A DNA stretch of 64,000 nt from Chitinophagales bacterium (GTDB lineage Bacteria; Bacteroidota; Bacteroidia; Chitinophagales; LD1). Both the position numbers and the translations under genes were made by a program. The stretch's first letter is position 1. The number at the start of each line of letters is the position of its first letter. Shown piece after piece: positions 32,691-45,372 of the stretch. The notes under the pieces were generated by a model. It saw nothing but the letters and a program-made list of their open reading frames with translations. It had not been told where the DNA came from and did not search any database. The DNA is taken from NCBI GenBank assembly GCA_016787045.1, contig JAEUVA010000024.1, positions 33,618 to 97,617 on the forward strand, in the 5' to 3' direction.

Positions 32691-33659
32691 TTATTTTTTC
32701 AGAAGCTTTTGGCACTGTCCATCGCTACATAACAGGTATATACCGTTTGAAAGATTAGTGGTGTTCAACTCATACCTGTTTGATGTGGCTGTCTCGCTCA
32801 GCACCAATTCTCCTAAAGATGAGTATAGTTTCAACTGTTTACCCGCTGCATTTGTTATAGTCACTAAACCAGAAAACGGATTAGGAAAAATTTGTAGGTT
32901 ACTTCCTGCAACAAATCCATCTGCCAAAGAAGTAACTGTGGCTTTTGAAGAGGCAGCATTCCACACTTCTTTAGTGTCTGTTTTGGAGAGAATAGCTATA
33001 GTGCGCAAGTTGCTCAAATTCCATCCTGCGGCAGCTTTGTAATGAAAGATAAATGACATTGAATCATTAACCAAAGGCAGCGGAATCAAATTGCCTTCAT
33101 TGCCATTTAGTGCTTTTCTGAAAACATCATGGTGTATATTTTCGCCATTAGGGGCGTTGTAATTGATGGGCTCTTCGGCCACTGCCACATATAGTTTTGC
33201 AGCGCTTACTCCGGCACTCACAGTAGTTTTAATTAGCACCGTAACAACAGCAGAGTCCGCAGTTATCCATTCATCACTCACCGAAATGGCAAACGGAGTA
33301 AGTTGATTCAATGTAGTATCAATAGTGGTGGTATTAATTGCCGGGTTTGCACTTGGTAATACTTTGCCATTGAGCACAAACCGAGGGGTAGCGCCATAGA
33401 TGCCATAATGGTTGGTGCGCCCGTCATTCTCTGAAACATTTTGCTGACTAAAGAAACAATTGCTATAGGGCGAGCTAGGGTGGTAAGCAATGTGCAGCAC
33501 CTTAGGGTAGTTATTCAATACCCCATAAAAACCTGGGTTTCGCGAAGCGCAAATACTACACCGCGTATTGGTAAAGTGTTCTATCACATTGGTACGTACT
33601 ACTTGTGCAAACAAATGGCAGGTCTGTACAACAGAAAAGAAAATGAATATCCAGCGCAT
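32691..33659 (-). CDS. Omp28-related thioredoxin-fold protein with T9SS type A CTD
   Basis: EHFTNTRCSIC (CxxC), YH, G.P...NG, H.DVFRK; CTD IFPNP...GIYLL...KLLKK. Confidence 0.75.
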   Translation of the reverse strand: MRWIFIFFSVVQTCHLFAQVVRTNVIEHFTNTRCSICASRNPGFYGVLNNYPKVLHIAYHPSSPYSNCFFSQQNVSENDGRTNHYGIYGATPRFVLNGKVLPSANPAINTTTIDTTLNQLTPFAISVSDEWITADSAVVTVLIKTTVSAGVSAAKLYVAVAEEPINYNAPNGENIHHDVFRKALNGNEGNLIPLPLVNDSMSFIFHYKAAAGWNLSNLRTIAILSKTDTKEVWNAASSKATVTSLADGFVAGSNLQIFPNPFSGLVTITNAAGKQLKLYSSLGELVLSETATSNRYELNTTNLSNGIYLLCSDGQCQKLLKK

Positions 33660-33697
33660 AAAGAATTGTTTAATTTGTGAGTGAAAATAAGAACATA

Positions 33698-34330
33698 GTG
33701 TACATACCACCGCACTTCAAGCTTGAAGATAAAATACAGATAGCTCAATTGATTGAGCAAAATAGTTTTGGCACCTTAGTTAGCGCACACAATAACATAC
33801 CCGTGGCCACACACATACCACTGGAGTTAAATACGACAGATTCAGAAAACTGGATTTTGTATGGCCACATGGCAAAAGCCAATCCGCAATGGAAACAGTT
33901 TGTTACCGGCACCGAAGTATTGGCCATGTTTTTAGGGGCGCATAGTTATATTTCTCCCTCGTGGTACACAGCACCTAACGTGCCTACATGGAACTATCTG
34001 GCCGCGCACCTGTATGGTACTCTTCGCATGCTTGAAGGCGAGGAACTGGAGAACCTGCTGCAAATGCAAATGAAGCGATATGAACAGATGCTGGCTAATA
34101 AACCTCAACCTTATGAAGCAATACCTGCACATACGCTTGAAAAGGACTTAAAGGGTGTGGTGGGTTTTGCTATTCGGGTGACCAAAGTGGAGGCCACCCA
34201 AAAACTATCTCAAAACAGAGACAACCAAAGCAAGCAAAACATCGTAAATGAGTTGAAAAATCAAAGATCATATGGCGCACCGCAAATAGCTGCTGAGATG
34301 GGAAAGCTACTTGACCCCAACAAAAAGTGA
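33698..34330 (+). CDS. paiB: FMN-binding PaiB-like protein (negative transcriptional regulator family)
   Basis: (M)YIP.HF, ATHIP, GHMAKANPQW, HSYISPSWY, VPTWNY, KLSQN; probable GTG start at 33698. Confidence 0.85.
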   Translation: MYIPPHFKLEDKIQIAQLIEQNSFGTLVSAHNNIPVATHIPLELNTTDSENWILYGHMAKANPQWKQFVTGTEVLAMFLGAHSYISPSWYTAPNVPTWNYLAAHLYGTLRMLEGEELENLLQMQMKRYEQMLANKPQPYEAIPAHTLEKDLKGVVGFAIRVTKVEATQKLSQNRDNQSKQNIVNELKNQRSYGAPQIAAEMGKLLDPNKK

Positions 34331-34400
34331 AAAATAAATTTGCACGGTATTTATGTGTTTGTACATTTATGGCCTGATTCAACTAACTAAAAACGGCAAC

Positions 34401-34922
34401 ATGAAAAAACTCTTTACAATTTTAGCTGTAGTGGCTGCCCCGGTGTTCATGAGCGCACAATCGCTCACACCAACTGTAATTGCCAGTACTGGCGGCTTTG
34501 CACAAAATGCCAACGGCAGTTTGTCTTACACCGTAGGCGAAATGACTATGGTACAAACTTTTTCTGCTAACGGAAACATACTTACACAAGGTTTCCAACA
34601 ACCTAACGACATCACCATTGGGCTAATAGATATTACCAAAGATGCTTTTGGCTCTTTTGTAGTATACCCTAACCCAGCCGTTGACAATTTGTTTTTTGGC
34701 TTTCAGTTTCCTGAGGCAGGTACTGTAAAGGTGGCTTTGTATGATGTGCTTGGTCAAAAATTAGGTGACATTTACTCTGCAGAGTACAGCACCGGAAAAA
34801 CCGTTGACGGATTTGCGGTGAACAACATGGCAGCTGGCATGTACTACCTCTCACTAAACTTTACTTCGGCTACCACCGGTAAAGAGTATGTGAGCACTAA
34901 GCCATTCCAAGTTATCAACTAA
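34401..34922 (+). CDS. Small T9SS type A cargo (short N-domain + CTD)
   Basis: Signal peptide, VIASTGG...LSYTVGE...LTQGFQQP, then CTD VYPNP...YDVLGQ...AGMYYL. Confidence 0.8.
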   Translation: MKKLFTILAVVAAPVFMSAQSLTPTVIASTGGFAQNANGSLSYTVGEMTMVQTFSANGNILTQGFQQPNDITIGLIDITKDAFGSFVVYPNPAVDNLFFGFQFPEAGTVKVALYDVLGQKLGDIYSAEYSTGKTVDGFAVNNMAAGMYYLSLNFTSATTGKEYVSTKPFQVIN

Positions 34923-34943
34923 TTCATTTCTTATCTAAACATT

Positions 34944-34969
34944 GCCGCAGCCCTGTCTGCGGCTTTTTT
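34944..34969 (+). terminator. Hairpin + U-tract between the small T9SS gene and the collagen-like gene
   Basis: GCCGCAG-CCCTGT-CTGCGGC-TTTTTT. Confidence 0.6.
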
Positions 34970-35004
34970 GTCATACCTAAACCAAAATTTAAACTCAAAA
35001 GCAC

Positions 35005-37125
35005 ATGAAAAAGTTATTACTCTTTTTAGTTGCAGCAGCTACGTTTATCACGTCAGCAAACGCACAGGCCCCACAAGGCATGAACTATCAAGCCATAGTT
35101 CGCAGTTCAACAGGTGCACCGGTTACTACCGGCACTGTACGTTTTCGTTTTACCATCCGCGATGGCTCACCTACTGGCTCAGCCGTATTTCAAGAATCAC
35201 AAACCGCTAACCCTAATCAGTTTGGTTTGGCTAATGTGGTTATTGGTACTGGCGGTGGCAACTTAGCTACTGTTAACTGGGGCAATGGTTCAAAATATTT
35301 ACAAGTAGAGTTAGACGTAACCGGTGGTACTAACTACACCGATATGGGTACTACTCAATTAATGAGCGTTCCTTACGCACTATTTGCCGGGAATGCCGGT
35401 GGCGCTACAGGCCCACAAGGTCCTACCGGTCCACAAGGCCCGGCCGGTAACGATGGTGCACCAGGCTCAGCAGGCCCAGCAGGTCCTACCGGTGCAGCAG
35501 GCGCTACTGGTGCAGCCGGAAATGACGGAGCTACTGGAGCAACTGGTGCTACAGGCCCACAAGGAGCCACAGGAGCTACAGGTTCAGGCGGTGGTGCTAC
35601 TGGCGCTACAGGTGCTACTGGCCCTACTGGTGCTGCTGGAGCAACAGGTAGCGCAGGTGCTACTGGTGCAGCAGGTGCTACCGGTGCCACAGGTGCAGTT
35701 GGTGCTACCGGTGCCACAGGTGCCACCGGTGCGGGTGCTACCGGTGCCACAGGTGCCACAGGCCCTGCCGGAAGCGGCACGGTAAGCGGTACATTAAACA
35801 CTGTGGCTAAGTTTACCCCTAACGGTACTTCTGTAGGCAACTCTCAAATTACTGATGATGCTACAACAGTATCAGTAGGCACACCGTTTACGGGTGTTGG
35901 GCTGGTGCATGTGGCTGGTGGGGTATCTACTAACAGTGCTGGCGGAGCGGGTTTCTACACCTATCAAACAGGAGTATTTAAAGGGGGTATGGAATTATTT
36001 GCCGGAGGGTATGACATCTATACAGATGCTACCACGCCAATTACATTTAGTCCTGGTGGTGGTTCTGAGCGCGCTCGCATTACACCAACCGGAGATGTAG
36101 GTATAGGCACTGCTGCACCAGGTGCTAAACTTGAAGTAGCGGGTCAGGTAAAAATAACCGGAGGCGCTCCGGGGGCAGGTAAAGTTTTAACTTCAGACGC
36201 AACCGGTTTAGCTACATGGGAAACTCCAGCAGCGGGTGGTGGTCAATGGATAACCAGTGGCAACAACATTTACAATGCTAATACTCAGTCTGTAGGTGTG
36301 GGCATCGCCACTCCAAGTGCAGTACACAAATTGCATGTGGTTGGTACTGACACTGCTGCAATTTATGGTGTATATAATGGTACTTTGAATGGTAAAACCG
36401 CAATTCATGGACACAATGCTTATGCTACTTTCACCGGTAGCGGAAACAACATTGGTGTGTTGGGTACTTACAACACAGCCGTTTACGGTACAGGTGTGGC
36501 TGGTATTGGTTTCACCGGTACTAAGCCGGCTAACGGTTTAGATATTGGCGTGTATGGCTCGGCTTCCATTGGTGGTTATTTTAAAGGGTCAACCGCTATA
36601 CGTGCAGAAGGTGTAGTAACCATTGTGGATGGTACACAAGGTGCCGGCAAAGTGTTAACTTCTGATGCTAACGGAAACGCTTCTTGGCAAACGCCAAGTG
36701 GTGGTGGCGGAGGCGGCACTGCCGTAACTGCTGCTTCATTTAGCGGATTTGCGGGAAGCAGCATTGCATCTGGCTCAACAGCATACGTTTTTGCAGGTCC
36801 AACAACCACAGTTACTATTACTTCTACCACTCAGCGAATTGTGGCTTCTGCCTCAGCAAATTTGGGAATGACTACAGGCAGCACAAATGCTGATATCGGT
36901 ATTTGTTACCAATTAGGAGCAGGAGCAATCACTAACTTTGTTGGAATCAACTACATAACAATGGCGCTGAATTCTACAACAACAGGCACTGTATCTGCTG
37001 ATGGCAGCATTACCGGTTTAGCTCCGGGTACTTACACCATTGGCTTAGGTATAAGAAATAGTGGAGCAGGTGCAATTAACAATAACGACTATGTTAATGG
37101 TTGGGTTATGGTGATTGGAAATTAA
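35005..37125 (+). CDS. Secreted collagen-like / tail-fibre-like trimeric surface protein without a T9SS CTD
   Basis: Signal peptide; [13 protein letters not shown]...SVPYALFA N-domain; about 40 Gly-X-Y triplets; G.VGIG...P..KL.V.G and [15 protein letters not shown] repeats; beta-rich C-terminal head. Confidence 0.8.
35401..35769 (+). repeat. Collagen Gly-X-Y repeat (GAT-dominated)
   Basis: 123 codons: 20 triplets, a GSGG break, 15 triplets, a GA break, 4 triplets; 9-nt DNA units such as GGTGCTACC/GGTGCCACA. Confidence 0.9.
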
Positions 37126-37146
37126 TCTGTATAGACAATTATTCGC

Positions 37147-37180
37147 AGAGGCCGCACCGAAAGGTGCGGCCTCTTTTTTT
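37147..37180 (+). terminator. Strong intrinsic terminator
   Basis: AGAGGCCGCACC-GAAA-GGTGCGGCCTCT followed by T-run. Confidence 0.88.
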
Positions 37181-37237
37181 GCGGTTAGCAATAGCATTTT
37201 TTTGGGGCAAACGCTAAGGCATCAGTAAAACTGACGA

Positions 37238-37732
37238 TTAATCGCTATAAGTAAAACTGAACTGCCCTTCACTCAACACCTTGGTGTTGCTGCCGTTGCT
37301 CTCGGCCACAACAGCACTAAAAGTGCCCGCAATTTTTTTAGTAGAGGGGTCAAACTCTGTAAAGTTAAGCACGCCCGGAGTGGCGTTTTGCGAGTAAAAT
37401 GTTTTGTCAAAATTGTTATTGCCGTAGCGCAAGATATTAGTGCCGTAGTTCAGTTCAATGGGGTTTAGTAAACTGTCCGGGTTGATGTAAAAATCAATTT
37501 CTACTTCGCCATAAAGTTTGCTGTTGTTTTGAAACTCTACCAGTTTGGTGCCTTTAACGGTAATGCGATTGCCATTGCGCTTTGCGCTACTGGTAGCTGC
37601 CGGAGCGTAAAACTCTTGCCCATCTAACTTAAAGCGGAAAGGAGCGGTGTTGAAATTTTCTTTTTTGCAGCCGGAGATCAAAAGTAGCAGGCAAGCAATT
37701 AGGAGTGGGCTATAACGTAGTTGGTGCATCAT
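37238..37732 (-). CDS. Hypothetical lipoprotein (DUF6252-like)
   Basis: Lipobox ISGC-KKE; F.LDG, G....T.FD.....I.GTF, ..EG.F end pattern. Confidence 0.6.
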   Translation of the reverse strand: MMHQLRYSPLLIACLLLLISGCKKENFNTAPFRFKLDGQEFYAPAATSSAKRNGNRITVKGTKLVEFQNNSKLYGEVEIDFYINPDSLLNPIELNYGTNILRYGNNNFDKTFYSQNATPGVLNFTEFDPSTKKIAGTFSAVVAESNGSNTKVLSEGQFSFTYSD

Positions 37733-37808
37733 GTAGATTTTGTATCCGCTAAAGTAACTGCCAAAGGGCAATTAACTGCGCCACTCCATCACCAAAACAC
37801 TGTCATTC

Positions 37809-39566: not shown

Positions 39567-39653
39567 TATTCGCTTGTTTTGAGGGGCGCAAATTAAATCC
39601 AATTCAGCCAATAGAAAACGCAAGTTTTCTAAACCTTTTTACAACGAAATGGC

Positions 39654-39661
39654 TACATTTG
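39654..39661 (+). promoter_or_regulatory. -7 promoter element TACATTTG for the large adhesin gene
   Basis: Exact TAnnTTTG 38 nt before ATG 39700; supports that start. Confidence 0.55.
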
Positions 39662-39699
39662 GCGTCTTTCATCTTTTTATAGCAAACACTTTCTTTCTG

Positions 39700-42600
39700 A
39701 TGAGGAATTTTTACTTATCGCTGTTGTTGATTTTTGGGATGTTATTTACTGCCAACCAAGTTAGTGCTTCGCACGTGATGGGAGCAGATATGGAGTATGA
39801 GTGCCTTGGCAATAATCAATACCGGGTAACTCTTCGCATTTATCGCGATTGTTGCGGTATCAGTATGTCTTCTTCAGTGCAGATGCAAGTGCTCAACACC
39901 TGTACAAACGCATCGTCCACGGTTACTCTAAATCAACAACCCGGCTCCGGTGTAGAAGTATCGCAACTTTGCCCATCTCAACTAAATCAAAGTGTTTGTA
40001 ACTCAGGTGTTACCTGCCCGGCCAATCCCTCCGGAAATCCGGCTACATACCCGGGGGTTCGTGTACACATTTATCAGGCCATTGTTACTCTAAATGGCCA
40101 ATGTAACAGTTGGCTTTTGCGCTGGAACGAGTGCTGCCGAAATAATGCCGTTAATAATATTCCGAATGCCAGTGGTACAGGAATAGGCATTGTGGCAATG
40201 ATAAACAATACCAATGACCCAGCTACGGGACAACCGTATTGCAACAATTCTGTGGCCTTCTCTACATTGCCGGTGCCGTTCATTTGTCTCAACTCTCCGT
40301 TCACGTTTAATAATGGTGGGGTAGATGTAAACGGGGACTCTCTCTTTTACCAACTCATTAACCCACTAAACGATACATACGGCAACGTTAACTTCAATGC
40401 CGGGTGGAGTGTTACTCAGCCGGTACGAACCACTCCGGCCAATAGTTTTCAATTTAGTTCCAGCTCCGGGCAAATGGCTTTTACTCCCGGTTTTTTAGAA
40501 GTAGATGTATTAGCCATGCGCGCTAATGAATACAAGAACGGTGTATTGGTGGGCTATACCATGCGCGATATTCAGGTTACCGTACTGCCATGTGTGGTAT
40601 CTACACCGGCTCAGCAGCCAATAACTAACCTACAAAATGGCAATCAGGTAGATTCGCTAAAAGTGCAAGTTTGCCCCGGTACTCCTTTGCAGTTTGATAT
40701 CTTGTGTATAGATCCGGCTAATCACAATCTTACAGTTACCAGCAATATCAATGCCTCTCCTTCGGCTATTCCGGGTGCCTCTATCACACAAATAGGTACC
40801 GGAGATTCGGTATTGGCTCGGCTGCAATGGACGCCATTAGCCAGCGATACCGGTTGTAAAAACTTTACGATTAACGCTAAAAATGACGACTGTCCCATTA
40901 ATGGGCAGCAGGTTAAGGTATATACGATTTGTGTGTTTACTAAAGTGCAGTTGCTGTCGGCAAGCCCCACCTTTTGTGGTACTCCGGTGCAACTTACCGC
41001 CAGCGGAGGTACAGGTTATGTGTGGACTCCTTCTACCGGTCCTAATGCGGTTTCTAATCCCAATATTTTAAATCCTACGGTTTCGCCCACCAGCAATCAG
41101 ATGTATTACTTCAGCAGCGATTGCGGCACGGATAGTGTTTTTGTTAAATCTGATCCTCCATTTTTATATGATGCCGGCCCCGGTGGCAGTATTTGCCAAA
41201 ATGGTCAATTGCAACTGAATGGGTTTACCGATAATTTATATGGGCCATATACATACAAATGGGTGCCAAGTACCGGTTTACAAGACCCGGTTTCGGGCTT
41301 GCCAAACGATTCTATCCTCAACCCGGTAGCGGCTCCACTCGCTACCACTAAGTACAAACTATATATCACCGGCACTAATGGCTGTACTAATGTAGATTCA
41401 GTAACCGTAAATGTAGCAGGCACCGGCCCGTCTATTGTAGTTAAAGCACAACCTGCCAATGTATGCCCTAACGACCCCGTACAGTTAAATATTTTTACTA
41501 ATCCAAATAACTGCGGCATCAGTCAAGCGCCCTGCACCGGCAATGTGCAGCAAGGCCAAGTGGGTATAGGTACAGGTCAAACTCCGCCCGGTTCAGCTAC
41601 TGGATATCCAACAGTTTATGGTCATTACAGCAACAGTGCACGGCACCAGTTTTTGTTTTTGGCCAGTGAGTTGCTTAGCCAGTTTCCATCAGGTGGAGAG
41701 ATAAGAAGTTTGTCCTTCAACGTAACGCAGATAAACACTGCCAACGATACCATCAAAAATTTTGAGATAAAATTAGGTTGCACCTCTGCTACTTCGCTAA
41801 GCACTTGGCAACCCAATTTGGTTACGGTGTTTTCGCCCAAAAGCATAGCCATGGGGCCCACTACTAACACCGGCTGGAAAACACATACATTTGATTTTCC
41901 ATACAACTGGGATGGGGTGTCTAACTTAGTGGTTGACATATGTTTTAATAACCCTACCGGCTCGGTGCTCAATGCCAAAATGCAAATGACACCTACTACC
42001 TTCAACTCTGTTTATTTTTCTAAAGGAAATACAACCCAATGCGGTACAACAGGTACACCAACGGTAAGCGTTAATCGGCCAAACACACAGTTTAATATGT
42101 GTATTACCGATGTATCGGGTATGCCTATTGTTTGGACCCCCGGTACAGGACCTAATGCGCCTACTCCGGCAGTTAACTCCACTAACCCCATAGCTAATCC
42201 TGTAACACCAGTTATTTATTATGCCGATGTAACAGCGCCTAACGGATGTGTGAGCAAAAATTACAAGTTGGTAAATGTAGATACCTCGCTCCGCTTTTTT
42301 GCCTTTCCTGCGGATACATTTTTCTGTAATCCTACCCAAGTGCAACTTACTACCCAAACAGTTGGTTTGCCATTGCCGGGGCAGCAGTTCAGTTACGAGT
42401 TTAGAAACTTATCTACTAACACTGTTTTGCAAAACAATGCTACCAACAGTTTGACGGTGAATCCTACTACCACCACCTCGTATTTAGTTACGCTCAATGG
42501 TGGTGCCTGTGTTATACGTGATACTGTTCGTGTGGTGATTGGCAATAGCATACCGGTAAATCTGGTAGTGGATAGTATCCGCTGTTTTGGACAAGCTAAC

Positions 42601-45372
42601 GGCAAAATAAAAGCAGTACCCAACGGTGGCACTGCGCCAATACAGTACAACTGGAGTACCGGTGCCATTATAGACTCTATTATAAATCTGGCCCCAAATA
42701 CTTATTCTGTAACTGTGCAAGACGCCATCGGCTGTACAGGCAGTGCCACTTTTAACCTTACACAACCTACTCAATTGGTACTGAATACGGCCACTCAAAA
42801 CGCAAGTTGTTTTGGGGGAAGCAACGGAAGTATCAACCTGAACCCATCTGGCGGCACACCAAATTATACCGTACAGTGGAGCCCGGCTCAGCCACCCGCT
42901 ACGAGCATCAATGGCTTAACACAAGGCACTTACAACGCTACTGTAACTGATAGCAAGGGATGTACGGTTACTTCATCACAAAACATATCTCAACCTACAC
43001 AACTTACGGTTAGTATTAGCTCAACCAATGTATCAGTAAATGGTGGAAGTGATGGTACAGCCACGGCTACAGCGCAGGGTGGAACACCAAACTACACATA
43101 TAATTGGAGCAACGGTGCTACCGGTGCCACCATTAGCAGCTTACCTTTTGGTAATTATTGTGTAACCGCTACCGATCAAAACAACTGTACTGCTACAGCA
43201 TGTGTGAGCATTACACAACCACCACCCATAGTTTTAAATTTCAATACAACAAACAACGCCTGCTTTGGCGATTGCAACGGTACGGCATCTGTAAGCGCTA
43301 CTGGAGGTACCTCTCCATATACATTTGCATGGAGTAATGGAATAAATGGAAATAGCATCAGTAACTTGTGTGCGGGTAATTACATCGTTACAGCTACCGA
43401 CAGCTCAGGGGCATCTGTAACGGGTACTGTAAACATCAGCGCACCTACACAGGTTAGTGTAGCTATTAATTCTACAAACATCACTTGTTTTGGTGCAAAC
43501 AATGGAGCTGCTATTGCTGTAGCTACAGGCGGTACAAGCGGCTACAGCTATTTGTGGAGCAATGGAAACGCTACTGCAAGCATCAGCAACCTTGCACCCA
43601 ATACGTACAGCGTAACCGCTACTGATGCTAATAATTGCACTGCCAGCGCCACTTGGACAGCCGTAGAGCCACCACAACTTACTCTCAGTATTTCATCTAC
43701 TACCGATGTGAGTTGTTTTGGAGGAAACAATGGTACCGCAACTGCCAATGCCAACGGAGGCACTCCGGGCTATACTTTCAATTGGTCACAAATAGGAAGT
43801 ACAGGTAATAGCAGTGTGGCCAATGGTTTTGCTGCTACTAACCATACGGTAACTGTAACCGATGTGCCGGGTTGTACAGCCACGGCCTCATTCACCATCA
43901 ATCAACCCACCGCATTGCTGGTAAATGTGGCATCGGTAACTAATGCTACTTGCTTTGGCGCTGCCAATGGTGTGGTAGATATTAATGTAAATGGAGGTAC
44001 TACTCCGTATGTTTTCTTGTGGAGCAACAGCAACACTACCGAGGATTTGAATGGTGTGACAGCCAACAATTATTCAGTAGTAGTAACCGATGCCAAACAA
44101 TGTACTGCTACCACATCGGCTATTATAAATCAACCCACACAAATTGTACTCACTTTTACCCATACCGACCCGCTTTGCAACGGTGATGCCAATGGCTCAG
44201 TAAGCGTAACAGCCACAGGCGGTACTCCCGGGTACAATTATGCGTGGTCATACAATCCATCGCCCAATAGCAACCTTTTACAAGGCATACCGGCAGGTAC
44301 ATATACTGTAATAGTTGCAGATATAAATAACTGCACAGTAACGGGTAATGAAACCGTAACTGACCCGGCCACACTCACAGCTGCTCTGATAAACAAAGTA
44401 GAAATTAGTTGTGCCAATGCAGCCGATGGCAGCATAGAGGTAAGCGCCAGTGGTGGAGTTACTCCGTACTACTACAATTGGAGCCACGGCCCAACTCAAT
44501 CTGCGGTTAGCAACCTTGCTCCAGGGGTATATGATGTAACCGTGCGCGATTTCAATAATTGTAGTGTGGTGTTGAATACCACATTTACTGCACCGGCACC
44601 TGTGGCAGTGGCATCGCTCATCATAGATTCTGTGAGTTGTCCGGGATATACAGATGGATGGTTGCAAATTTCGGCTATTGGTGGCACGCCATCACCCACT
44701 TTTGGGTATGAGTATTCTGTGAATGGCGGAGCTTTTCAAACCGCTCAGGTATTTGATAACCTAAAGGCAGGTGCATACAAAGTAACCATCCGCGATGGCA
44801 AAGGATGCACTAAAGACACCACTGTGTATGTGTATGAGCCACAGCAACTTTCATTAGACATAATGCCTAAAGACAGTATGATTGATTTGGGCACATCTAT
44901 TACGCTGGTTTCTAATATACCTAACTATAGCGGAAGTAGTATCAACTATTACACATGGAGTCCGCTTACAGGCATAACTTGTGCCGATTGTGCCTCAACC
45001 ATTGCCACCCCTTATACACACACTGCTTATACTTTAACAGTAAATTATTTACAGAATTGCAGCGTTTCGCAAACGGTAAGCGTCTATGTAGAGCCGGGTG
45101 ACGATTTTTTTGTGCCTAATGCATTTTCGCCAAACGGTGACGGCAACAATGACGTTCTTGTAGTTTATGGTAGTGGCATAGCCAAAGTGGACTTGAAAAT
45201 TTTTAATCGTTGGGGCGAATTGATTTTTGACTCACAAAACCAGTGGGCCGGTTGGGATGGTACCTACAAAGGTGTAGTACAAAACCCCGGAGTATATACG
45301 TATCAGGTGGTGGCTACTTACTTAAATGGCAAGGTGCACCAGAAAAAAGGAACTATTACTATTTTGCGATAA
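39700..45372 (+). CDS. Large SprB-repeat adhesin-like protein with type B (gliding motility-associated) CTD
   Basis: MRNFY signal peptide + SHVMGADMEY; about 10 SprB repeats (C.G...G.......GGT..Y.Y.WS.G); CTD VPNAFSPNGDGNND...NRWGE...GWDG...GVYTY. Confidence 0.88.
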   Translation: MRNFYLSLLLIFGMLFTANQVSASHVMGADMEYECLGNNQYRVTLRIYRDCCGISMSSSVQMQVLNTCTNASSTVTLNQQPGSGVEVSQLCPSQLNQSVCNSGVTCPANPSGNPATYPGVRVHIYQAIVTLNGQCNSWLLRWNECCRNNAVNNIPNASGTGIGIVAMINNTNDPATGQPYCNNSVAFSTLPVPFICLNSPFTFNNGGVDVNGDSLFYQLINPLNDTYGNVNFNAGWSVTQPVRTTPANSFQFSSSSGQMAFTPGFLEVDVLAMRANEYKNGVLVGYTMRDIQVTVLPCVVSTPAQQPITNLQNGNQVDSLKVQVCPGTPLQFDILCIDPANHNLTVTSNINASPSAIPGASITQIGTGDSVLARLQWTPLASDTGCKNFTINAKNDDCPINGQQVKVYTICVFTKVQLLSASPTFCGTPVQLTASGGTGYVWTPSTGPNAVSNPNILNPTVSPTSNQMYYFSSDCGTDSVFVKSDPPFLYDAGPGGSICQNGQLQLNGFTDNLYGPYTYKWVPSTGLQDPVSGLPNDSILNPVAAPLATTKYKLYITGTNGCTNVDSVTVNVAGTGPSIVVKAQPANVCPNDPVQLNIFTNPNNCGISQAPCTGNVQQGQVGIGTGQTPPGSATGYPTVYGHYSNSARHQFLFLASELLSQFPSGGEIRSLSFNVTQINTANDTIKNFEIKLGCTSATSLSTWQPNLVTVFSPKSIAMGPTTNTGWKTHTFDFPYNWDGVSNLVVDICFNNPTGSVLNAKMQMTPTTFNSVYFSKGNTTQCGTTGTPTVSVNRPNTQFNMCITDVSGMPIVWTPGTGPNAPTPAVNSTNPIANPVTPVIYYADVTAPNGCVSKNYKLVNVDTSLRFFAFPADTFFCNPTQVQLTTQTVGLPLPGQQFSYEFRNLSTNTVLQNNATNSLTVNPTTTTSYLVTLNGGACVIRDTVRVVIGNSIPVNLVVDSIRCFGQANGKIKAVPNGGTAPIQYNWSTGAIIDSIINLAPNTYSVTVQDAIGCTGSATFNLTQPTQLVLNTATQNASCFGGSNGSINLNPSGGTPNYTVQWSPAQPPATSINGLTQGTYNATVTDSKGCTVTSSQNISQPTQLTVSISSTNVSVNGGSDGTATATAQGGTPNYTYNWSNGATGATISSLPFGNYCVTATDQNNCTATACVSITQPPPIVLNFNTTNNACFGDCNGTASVSATGGTSPYTFAWSNGINGNSISNLCAGNYIVTATDSSGASVTGTVNISAPTQVSVAINSTNITCFGANNGAAIAVATGGTSGYSYLWSNGNATASISNLAPNTYSVTATDANNCTASATWTAVEPPQLTLSISSTTDVSCFGGNNGTATANANGGTPGYTFNWSQIGSTGNSSVANGFAATNHTVTVTDVPGCTATASFTINQPTALLVNVASVTNATCFGAANGVVDINVNGGTTPYVFLWSNSNTTEDLNGVTANNYSVVVTDAKQCTATTSAIINQPTQIVLTFTHTDPLCNGDANGSVSVTATGGTPGYNYAWSYNPSPNSNLLQGIPAGTYTVIVADINNCTVTGNETVTDPATLTAALINKVEISCANAADGSIEVSASGGVTPYYYNWSHGPTQSAVSNLAPGVYDVTVRDFNNCSVVLNTTFTAPAPVAVASLIIDSVSCPGYTDGWLQISAIGGTPSPTFGYEYSVNGGAFQTAQVFDNLKAGAYKVTIRDGKGCTKDTTVYVYEPQQLSLDIMPKDSMIDLGTSITLVSNIPNYSGSSINYYTWSPLTGITCADCASTIATPYTHTAYTLTVNYLQNCSVSQTVSVYVEPGDDFFVPNAFSPNGDGNNDVLVVYGSGIAKVDLKIFNRWGELIFDSQNQWAGWDGTYKGVVQNPGVYTYQVVATYLNGKVHQKKGTITILR

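Follow-up and report, generated by a model that had tools for sequence, protein, structure and literature searches.

A pair of neighbouring genes in a Chitinophagales bacterium appears to encode a trimeric, collagen-stalked surface fibre together with a small adaptor for it. The window analysed is the whole stretch of 64,000 nucleotides between positions 33,618 and 97,617 of contig JAEUVA010000024.1, and the coordinates given below are those of the window. Gene 1 (open reading frame (ORF) 34353-34922) specifies a small protein with the sorting signal of the type IX secretion system (T9SS), and gene 2 (35005-37125, 706 residues) specifies the fibre. Our reading is that the short N-terminal module of the gene 1 product attaches to the fibre trimer at its base and connects the fibre with the T9SS; for this statement as a whole we would put the probability at about 0.6. 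The computational support is firmer for the binding than for the linkage to the T9SS.

For gene 1, the ATG of the MKKLF start at 34401 is preferred, giving a protein of 173 residues. Residues 1-19 (34401..34457; like all features of the pair, on the + strand) form a putative signal peptide, read by eye from the translation, with typical n-, h- and c-regions and a predicted cleavage site between MSA and QS. The signal peptide is followed by a Gly/Ser/Thr-rich N-module of about 50 residues (VIASTGG...LSYTVGE...LTQGFQQP; residues 21-69, 34461..34607), the predicted fibre-binding plug, recognizable by its motifs GG, S-Y-T-x-G-E and LTQGFQQP. A short linker then leads to a T9SS type A C-terminal sorting domain (CTD; residues 88-159, 34662..34877), which scores above the cut-off of both curated models, PF18962 (E 2e-9, 38 bits against 27) and TIGR04183 (38.3 bits against 23). 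The CTD is the sole family match in Pfam, NCBIfam and PHROG; scans of these collections gave no model for the N-module and no catalytic domain, leaving a passenger of only about 65 residues, free of enzymatic or adhesive domains. The protein contains no cysteine. Its most conserved part is the N-module, with a majority-residue share of 0.66, as against 0.47 for the CTD and 0.40 for the linker; the Atlas match of the module is to Bacteroidota clusters without a name (0.90, a lead only). The host genome encodes both the translocon and the sortase expected for T9SS cargo, namely SprA (TIGR04189, 2447.5 bits) and PorU (NF033707, 1319.7 bits).

Gene 2 begins with a signal peptide read from the translation (residues 1-20, 35005..35064; predicted cleavage between ANA and QA, no cysteine), followed by a conserved N-domain that resembles that of the mosaic adhesive trimer (MAT) fibres of Bdellovibrio and ends in SVPYAL (residues 21-131, 35065..35397). 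A collagen-like triple-helix stalk of 41 G-X-Y triplets in three runs (residues 133-258, 35401..35778; Pfam Collagen, E 4.2e-13) leads into a fibre shaft of repeated GxGIGT...KL.V.G... units (35779..36681), supported by tail-fibre matches in PHROG and by comparison with paralogues. These matches extend past the collagen, phrog_6320 covering residues 133-477 and phrog_819 residues 133-609; the shaft motif occurs at residues 387 and 546, and its units are common to the fibres C45, C21, L036 and L032. The 147 residues at the distal end (residues 560-706, 36682..37122) form a variable head, for which a search of all ORFs of 157 loci and of the genome itself gave a single homologue (in locus L082) and whose Atlas model is similar to hypothetical proteins of phages (TM 0.75, again only a lead).

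Signals of the usual kinds for crossing or anchoring at the outer membrane are absent from gene 2 by the searches made. Collagen is its only Pfam match at E<=1, so that it has no CTD, no YadA anchor and no autotransporter barrel at this threshold, and thus lacks the C-terminal YadA-type barrel of a trimeric autotransporter. There is no lipobox, as in a surface lipoprotein, the single cysteine being residue 634. The models for LPXTG collagen-like adhesins (Scl, Lcl) match the collagen part alone and fall far below their cut-offs (NF038330, 61.5 against 400; NF038329, 59 against 325; NF046116, 42.5 bits against 500). A preliminary description of the window had presented gene 1 as a signal peptide, a short segment and a type A CTD with no catalytic domain, and gene 2 as a signal peptide, N-domain, collagen stalk, phage-fibre-like repeats and head with no CTD, lipobox or barrel; the family scans and the cysteine positions bear out both architectures.

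The single non-collagen NCBIfam match of gene 2 is that of its N-domain to NF053851 (Bdello_MAT_N; E 1.3e-8, 34.9 bits), and each of the aligned related N-domains (64 of 64) likewise matches this model alone. Every one of these scores is below the 60-bit cut-off of the model, so the profile comparison indicates a distant homologue of the Bdellovibrio MAT N-domain rather than a member of the curated subfamily. AlphaFold2 (AF2) models the N-domain as a beta-sandwich (pLDDT 87.7, pTM 0.81). Foldseek gave 0 matches in the Protein Data Bank at E<=0.001, and similarity there is of the generic beta-sandwich kind; a VIA-wide fold search gave a best Z of 6.9 and none of 8 or more. BFVD gave three matches at E<=0.001 (TM up to 0.54), and weak matches were seen to a phage neck protein and a tail-tip complex protein (7kjk, E 2.9e-3; 9e7m, E 4.8e-3) and, in BFVD, to minor tail proteins. 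The excerpted text of the MAT report (PMC10769870) likewise states that the model of the Bdellovibrio N-domain has no specific solved relative.

Among 53 full-length fibre relatives, 12 carry Peptidase_S74, one YadA_head and one C1q, gene 2 itself being of the non-S74 kind, so that gene 2 and its relatives show the mixture of S74 and non-S74 tips and the mosaic heads of the MAT family. The 41 collagen triplets and a confident model of the N-domain trimer (pLDDT 91) suggest that the fibre body is trimeric. On these sequence features gene 2 can be classed as a non-S74, collagen-stalked, MAT-like fibre. A CTD hidden in the fibre tails was considered and rejected: the tails are mutually unrelated and 0 of 53 match CTD models.

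The gene pair recurs across Bacteroidota. In the genome of the window the only other ORF with the gene 1 module lies directly upstream of another fibre (contig C22). At the level of the order, the module was present in 33 of 40 related genomes, and all 78 matches were taken as 75 loci; 57 of the 79 module ORFs there lie on the same strand as, and within 150 nt of, an ORF with the fibre N-domain. These 57 consist of 42 small ORFs upstream of the fibre, 8 small ORFs downstream and 7 long ORFs downstream, while for 3 further module ORFs the fibre is more distant and for 19 the stretch contains no fibre at all. In other orders and classes of Bacteroidota the module ORF is directly beside a fibre in 31 of 40 cases, so that adjacency holds across classes despite divergence to 25-40% identity. 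A second set from close relatives, which overlaps the first and is not independent of it, gave 61 adjacent ORFs out of 84; it was found through an alignment of 11 close sequences and reaches only named records of uncultured Chitinophagales or Bacteroidota metagenome-assembled genomes. With just 13 fibre genes in a 3.6-Mb genome, chance adjacency would be expected in less than about 1% of cases.

The two families are also nested by genome. A hand tally of 301 Bacteroidota genomes gave 58 with both families, 1 with the module only, 27 with fibres only and 215 with neither; no significance test was applied to this table because related genomes are not independent. The lone module-only genome is a doubtful internal match. 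In genus g85 of family f43, many of the genomes sampled carry just one adaptor-fibre pair. The fibre-only class is partly a detection limit of the module search. When 20 fibre loci from 19 module-negative genomes were scanned with an improved hidden Markov model (HMM), 4 proved to have a module ORF immediately upstream, and inspection of 12 fibre loci from such genomes revealed a small signal-peptide ORF directly upstream in 7. All 7 of these small ORFs match the Pfam CTD model, 6 of them above the cut-off; with two more upstream ORFs (genomes G039 and G033) the count becomes 9 of 9, 8 above the cut-off. The preliminary description had put forward a recurrent pairing with variable heads, and the loci of the order and the phylum together with the domain scans of the fibres bear this out: the families co-occur (58 of 59 module genomes have fibres), and they are adjacent far beyond chance.

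The division of signals between the two families is equally regular. None of the 53 full-length fibres has a CTD, and 132 of the top 150 representatives of the module family do (130 Por_Secre_tail, 2 CHU_C). A profile search of 1.84 billion representatives, each standing for a cluster at 50% identity, returned 10678 module proteins at E<=0.001, of which 2478 also pass E<=1e-10. The top 150 are mostly 150-180 residues long, the module following the signal peptide directly, and the source names given are 'T9SS type A sorting domain-containing protein' or 'hypothetical' only. Tandem duplication of the module, seen as two matched stretches, occurs in P0125, P0126, P0133, P0177 and P0221. What looks like a decayed pair is found at locus L167 (G261:C82), with a module ORF of 69 residues and the fibre N-domain split over two short ORFs.

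The binding was modelled by structure prediction of three fibre N-domains with one module (mature residues 1-67), each chain having its own unpaired alignment. The ipSAE values were 0.80, 0.82 and 0.82, whereas none of three controls scored above 0.02; the threshold applied to this score is passed by 116 of 157 solved complexes as against 2 of 215 mismatched pairs, a calibration that holds only roughly for the present case. At least 87% of contacts are common between runs, and the pLDDT of the partner is at least 68. All 49 of module residues 1-49 contact all three N-domain copies, at nearly identical residues in the strands 7-16, 52-61, 80-86 and 93-105 (alignment numbering), which places a single module on the three-fold axis of each trimer. 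The closest pairs join the NILTQGF stretch of the module with the YQAIVR strand of the fibre. The isolated module shows little order when modelled (pLDDT 41-59), and the CTD of gene 1 scores above 90 (AF2). Conservation of the N-domain is 0.70 in the predicted interface columns and 0.57 elsewhere, although these columns may also be trimer-core positions. In fibres with no adjoining module gene the interface residues are retained at least as well as in the second adaptor-linked paralogue.

Binding of the small protein to the fibre N-domain is thus well supported by computation, and is likely to occur in the cell. The preliminary description had gone further, proposing that the small protein supplies secretion or anchoring in trans. 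The two computational checks suggested there, on co-occurrence and on a predicted interface, were both positive and strengthen the binding part of that idea; the secretion or anchoring part we infer because the fibres lack a CTD (0/53), the module proteins carry one (132/150) and SprA and PorU are encoded.

The mechanism that we envisage is as follows. Gene 2 would provide a MAT-like trimeric surface fibre whose N-domains form the base, followed by the collagen stalk, the shaft and a head that can be exchanged, and gene 1 would provide a T9SS-borne adaptor of this fibre, both proteins first being exported by the Sec pathway. The poorly ordered N-module of about 50 residues would insert on the three-fold axis at the base, one adaptor to three fibre chains, with its LTQGFQQP strand pairing with the NYQAIVR strand of the fibre. 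The type A CTD of the adaptor would be the sole T9SS signal of the complex. The adaptor would either carry the assembled fibre through the SprA translocon in piggy-back fashion or be exported first, and PorU would cleave off the CTD and attach the adaptor at the surface of the cell, so that the fibre is held by its base with the head pointing outwards, where it may act as an adhesin. Either route, co-export or docking of the fibre on an already exported, sortase-anchored adaptor, may be used. In favour of piggy-back export, the fibres possess a Sec signal peptide but show no other recognizable route across the outer membrane, and the predicted stoichiometry is one CTD per trimer. A more ambitious version of this scheme may be entertained tentatively: a phylum-wide hitchhiker branch of the T9SS, in which a plug of about 6 kDa with its CTD is fitted into the base of an already assembled CTD-less trimer, is the only export signal of that trimer and, once cleaved by the sortase, its covalent surface anchor. 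A handful of plugs would then export and display an exchangeable set of MAT-type fibres, as many as dozens in each cell.

Fibres are far more numerous than adaptors. The genome of the window has 13 ORFs with the fibre N-domain, three of them cut by contig ends, and the number is a lower bound because the assembly breaks at fibre repeats: contigs C18, C8, C36, C47, C11 and C21 begin or end in fibre N-domains or collagen repeats. In related genomes the number of N-domain matches rises to as many as 34. Since the N-domain is conserved over many paralogues and adaptor genes are few, a few adaptors probably serve the whole fibre repertoire. The preliminary description had seen a two-gene module; the pairing stands, and the notion of a closed two-gene system does not, only 2 of the 13 fibres having a small gene of their own and some small genes standing alone. 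The best-conserved copy of the small gene is often such a lone one (L003, L013, L018, L020-L024), situated between dehydrogenase-like and UvrB-like genes (named by eye). One orphan fibre is found about 1.9 kb downstream of sprA on contig C6 (93371-100828 and 102708-104207), with one opposite-strand ORF between them.

The same N-module also heads much longer proteins, from 794 to more than 1267 residues, in which PKD, GH16-like, beta-helix or MopE-like regions follow. Of the 13 long module ORFs, 7 lie directly downstream of a fibre gene, and a CTD is matched in 3 of the 8 whose C-terminus is in view. These proteins indicate that the N-module is a portable fibre-binding tag on T9SS cargo. In the long-module loci (L042, L048, L049, L051, L052, L054-L057, L062, L065, L071 and L072) the gene usually follows a short fibre gene directly.

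Several observations weigh against our reading. In the genome of the window, 11 of the 13 fibres have no adjoining adaptor gene, and in the order as a whole the same is true of roughly six fibres in seven (about 59 pairs against 422 N-domain matches). Eleven of the closest orthologues of gene 1, each belonging to its genus, have no ORF with a fibre N-domain in the stretch examined; at 3 of these loci (L014, L016 and L027) there is an upstream collagen ORF whose N-terminus falls outside the stretch. Five of the 12 inspected fibre loci from module-negative genomes have no small CTD ORF upstream. The score of the complex is a measure of model confidence, obtained with unpaired alignments and a three-plus-one arrangement unlike that of the calibration. 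A terminator-like hairpin separates the two genes, and in one RNA library (X1, described below) the contigs break there, with a word depth of 32 in gene 1 and 8 in the fibre gene. The literature searched yielded no example of a CTD-less protein that the T9SS exports together with a partner. Bdellovibrio, moreover, belongs outside the phylum that uses the T9SS. MAT fibres are nonetheless present on the Bdellovibrio surface according to the excerpted MAT report, and the N-domain thus has no inherent need for a CTD partner.

The roles of the two proteins could also be the reverse of those proposed: the fibre would be anchored by other means, and the N-module would be a dockerin-like tag loading T9SS proteins onto the fibre base, the cargo being enzymes or PKD proteins and, in the minimal form, nothing. 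The long PKD, GH16-like and beta-helix proteins downstream of fibres (7 of 13 long ORFs adjacent) would suit such a scaffold, and the binding that it requires is supported by the complex model. We consider it unlikely, since the form with module and CTD alone, which has nothing to display, is overwhelmingly common; in addition, the N-domain is the sole conserved part of the fibre, its axis is occupied by the module, and the fibres, which have no lipobox, barrel or CTD, have no other obvious anchor. A different possibility is that the small protein acts, in the periplasm or outside the cell, as a chaperone or cap that templates or checks trimerization of the N-domain and is absent from the final structure. 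Its gene adjoins fibre genes, just as the Tfa-type fibre assembly genes of phages sit beside theirs, and in the models the module is disordered alone and contacts all three chains at once; an intramolecular S74 chaperone is present at the other end of the fibre in 12 of 53 relatives. Against this, 132 of 150 module proteins carry a T9SS sorting domain, for which a chaperone would have no use, and the long multidomain proteins do not fit this role, making it quite improbable.

There may, finally, be no physical link at all, the genes being merely co-regulated or parts of a mobile cassette and the small protein an independent secreted or surface protein. This would account for the hairpin between the genes, for the gene 1 orthologues that lack a fibre and for the many fibres that lack a neighbouring small gene. 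It would leave unexplained why adjacency is kept across classes at 25-40% identity, why co-occurrence is nested by genome and why the predicted interface is confident when the controls are near zero, and we regard it as very improbable. An adaptor that binds the fibre base and connects it with the T9SS remains our preferred reading of the pair.

The two halves of the pair, MAT fibres and T9SS cargo, are both of known kinds. Cargo of the type A class, as known from the Porphyromonas and Flavobacterium paradigm, has a CTD and is attached to the surface by PorU. Gene 1 conforms in its type A CTD and the presence of SprA and PorU in the genome, and its N-terminus reads by eye like a Sec signal peptide; it differs in having a passenger of about 65 residues, proposed to carry or anchor a second, CTD-less protein, a role not found described in the literature searched. 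A search of that literature for the T9SS together with piggyback, hitchhiking, tail fiber or collagen-like fibre gave nothing on this module.

The MAT fibres of Bdellovibrio bacteriovorus, as described in the excerpted text of PMC10769870, share with gene 2 a signal peptide followed by a conserved beta-rich N-domain of about 110-130 residues, a trimeric fibre, exchangeable S74 or non-S74 tips and membership of a large paralogous family. The fibres described here differ in their host, a member of the Bacteroidota rather than a predator of the Bdellovibrio and like organisms (BALO) group, in their collagen stalk and in their scores below the 60-bit cut-off. Another difference is their genetic linkage to a small protein with a T9SS CTD; the same report (PMC10769870) explicitly leaves open which partner the conserved MAT N-domain has. 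In the literature searched, 'mosaic adhesive trimer' is used for Bdellovibrio or its relatives only.

Parallels of other kinds can also be drawn. In the nap of the Bacillus exosporium, the collagen-like protein BclA is bound through its N-terminal domain to a basal-layer protein. Gene 2 would similarly be a collagen-stalked trimer with a globular beta head, held through a short N-terminal region by a separate anchor, but its host is a diderm, its N-domain is of another fold and family, and the anchor would be delivered by the T9SS; the sequences were compared for the collagen part only. In hitchhiker export by the Tat pathway, a signal-less partner leaves the cytoplasm with a signal-bearing subunit. 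Here, too, one subunit would bear the sole targeting signal of a pre-assembled complex that crosses a membrane folded, although the membrane would be the outer one, the machine the T9SS and the signal C-terminal, and co-translocation is in our case a proposal. The PHROG matches, the S74 domains of relatives and the weak fold matches of the N-domain recall phage tail fibres mounted on baseplate or tail-tip adaptors, but no phage genes flank the pair and the fold matches are at the level of a generic beta-sandwich. A phage or prophage origin of the pair was considered separately and rejected, the neighbours being housekeeping genes.

What appears to be new is a very large MAT-like family in Bacteroidota, a coupled N-module family of about 10^4 clusters and the possible provision of a CTD in trans to a CTD-less trimer. 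The pair is a concrete candidate for what a MAT N-domain binds and for how such fibres are held, and if the hitchhiker scheme is true the plug would show what sort of partner the MAT N-domain takes. If fibres do ride out on the CTD of an adaptor, they constitute a class of T9SS cargo that is missed by searches for CTDs, and the prediction of T9SS secretomes would change. The N-module family, with its 10678 clusters, has no family model or functional name, and a single experiment could annotate thousands of genes. With up to 34 fibre N-domains per genome and swapped heads, the fibres may form a major unstudied system by which environmental Bacteroidota bind cells, particles or prey. A short plug that captures a trimer might also serve as a handle for display.

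Four RNA libraries (X1-X4) from three studies bear on the transcription of the pair, and their contigs cover both genes. As noted in the preliminary description, a hairpin lies between the genes and a strong terminator closes the pair. The intergenic hairpin (34944..34970, stem-loop 34944-34963) has a 7-bp stem with 6 G-C pairs followed by TTTTTT; the closing intrinsic terminator (37147..37181, stem-loop 37147-37174) has a 12-bp stem with 9 G-C pairs and a run of seven T. The scan gave 5 terminator-like sites against 4.0 expected, so that these two are notable by their strength and position only. In run X1, which has the identical sequence, one contig covers gene 1 at 34446-34979 and the next starts at 34982, just past the hairpin. 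In runs X2-X4, from a strain about 98.7% identical, a contig at 34394-35304 spans the hairpin and joins gene 1 to the N-domain part of gene 2. The flanks of the pair, 34200-34303 and beyond 37112, have no contig cover in any of the four runs, and no contig extends past 37109. This cover fits a two-gene unit that starts just 5' of 34401, with partial termination at the hairpin. Such contigs are a poor measure of level and no proof of transcript ends, carry-over of DNA is possible, and the depths were not used for ranking. The collagen and shaft are partly uncovered in X2-X4, from which nothing is concluded. A contig of X4 skips 157 nt in the collagen repeats (35465-35623), with 10 other letters between, probably because of strain variation in repeat length or an effect of assembly.

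Some minor features of the window may be recorded. A possible -7 promoter box of the Bacteroidota type (TAAATTTG, 34335..34342, + strand) lies 5' of gene 1; it was read by eye against TAnnTTTG, which we take to be the consensus, and is a weak part of the description. On either side of the pair, and on the opposite strand, are a 339-residue protein with a CTD-like C-terminal end (32691-33710) and a 177-residue protein with a lipobox-like LLISGCKKE (37238-37771), both features being judged by eye. Farther downstream, an ORF of 1907 residues (39649-45372, + strand) contains many repeated cysteine units and finishes, again by eye, in what resembles a type B, gliding-motility-type T9SS CTD.

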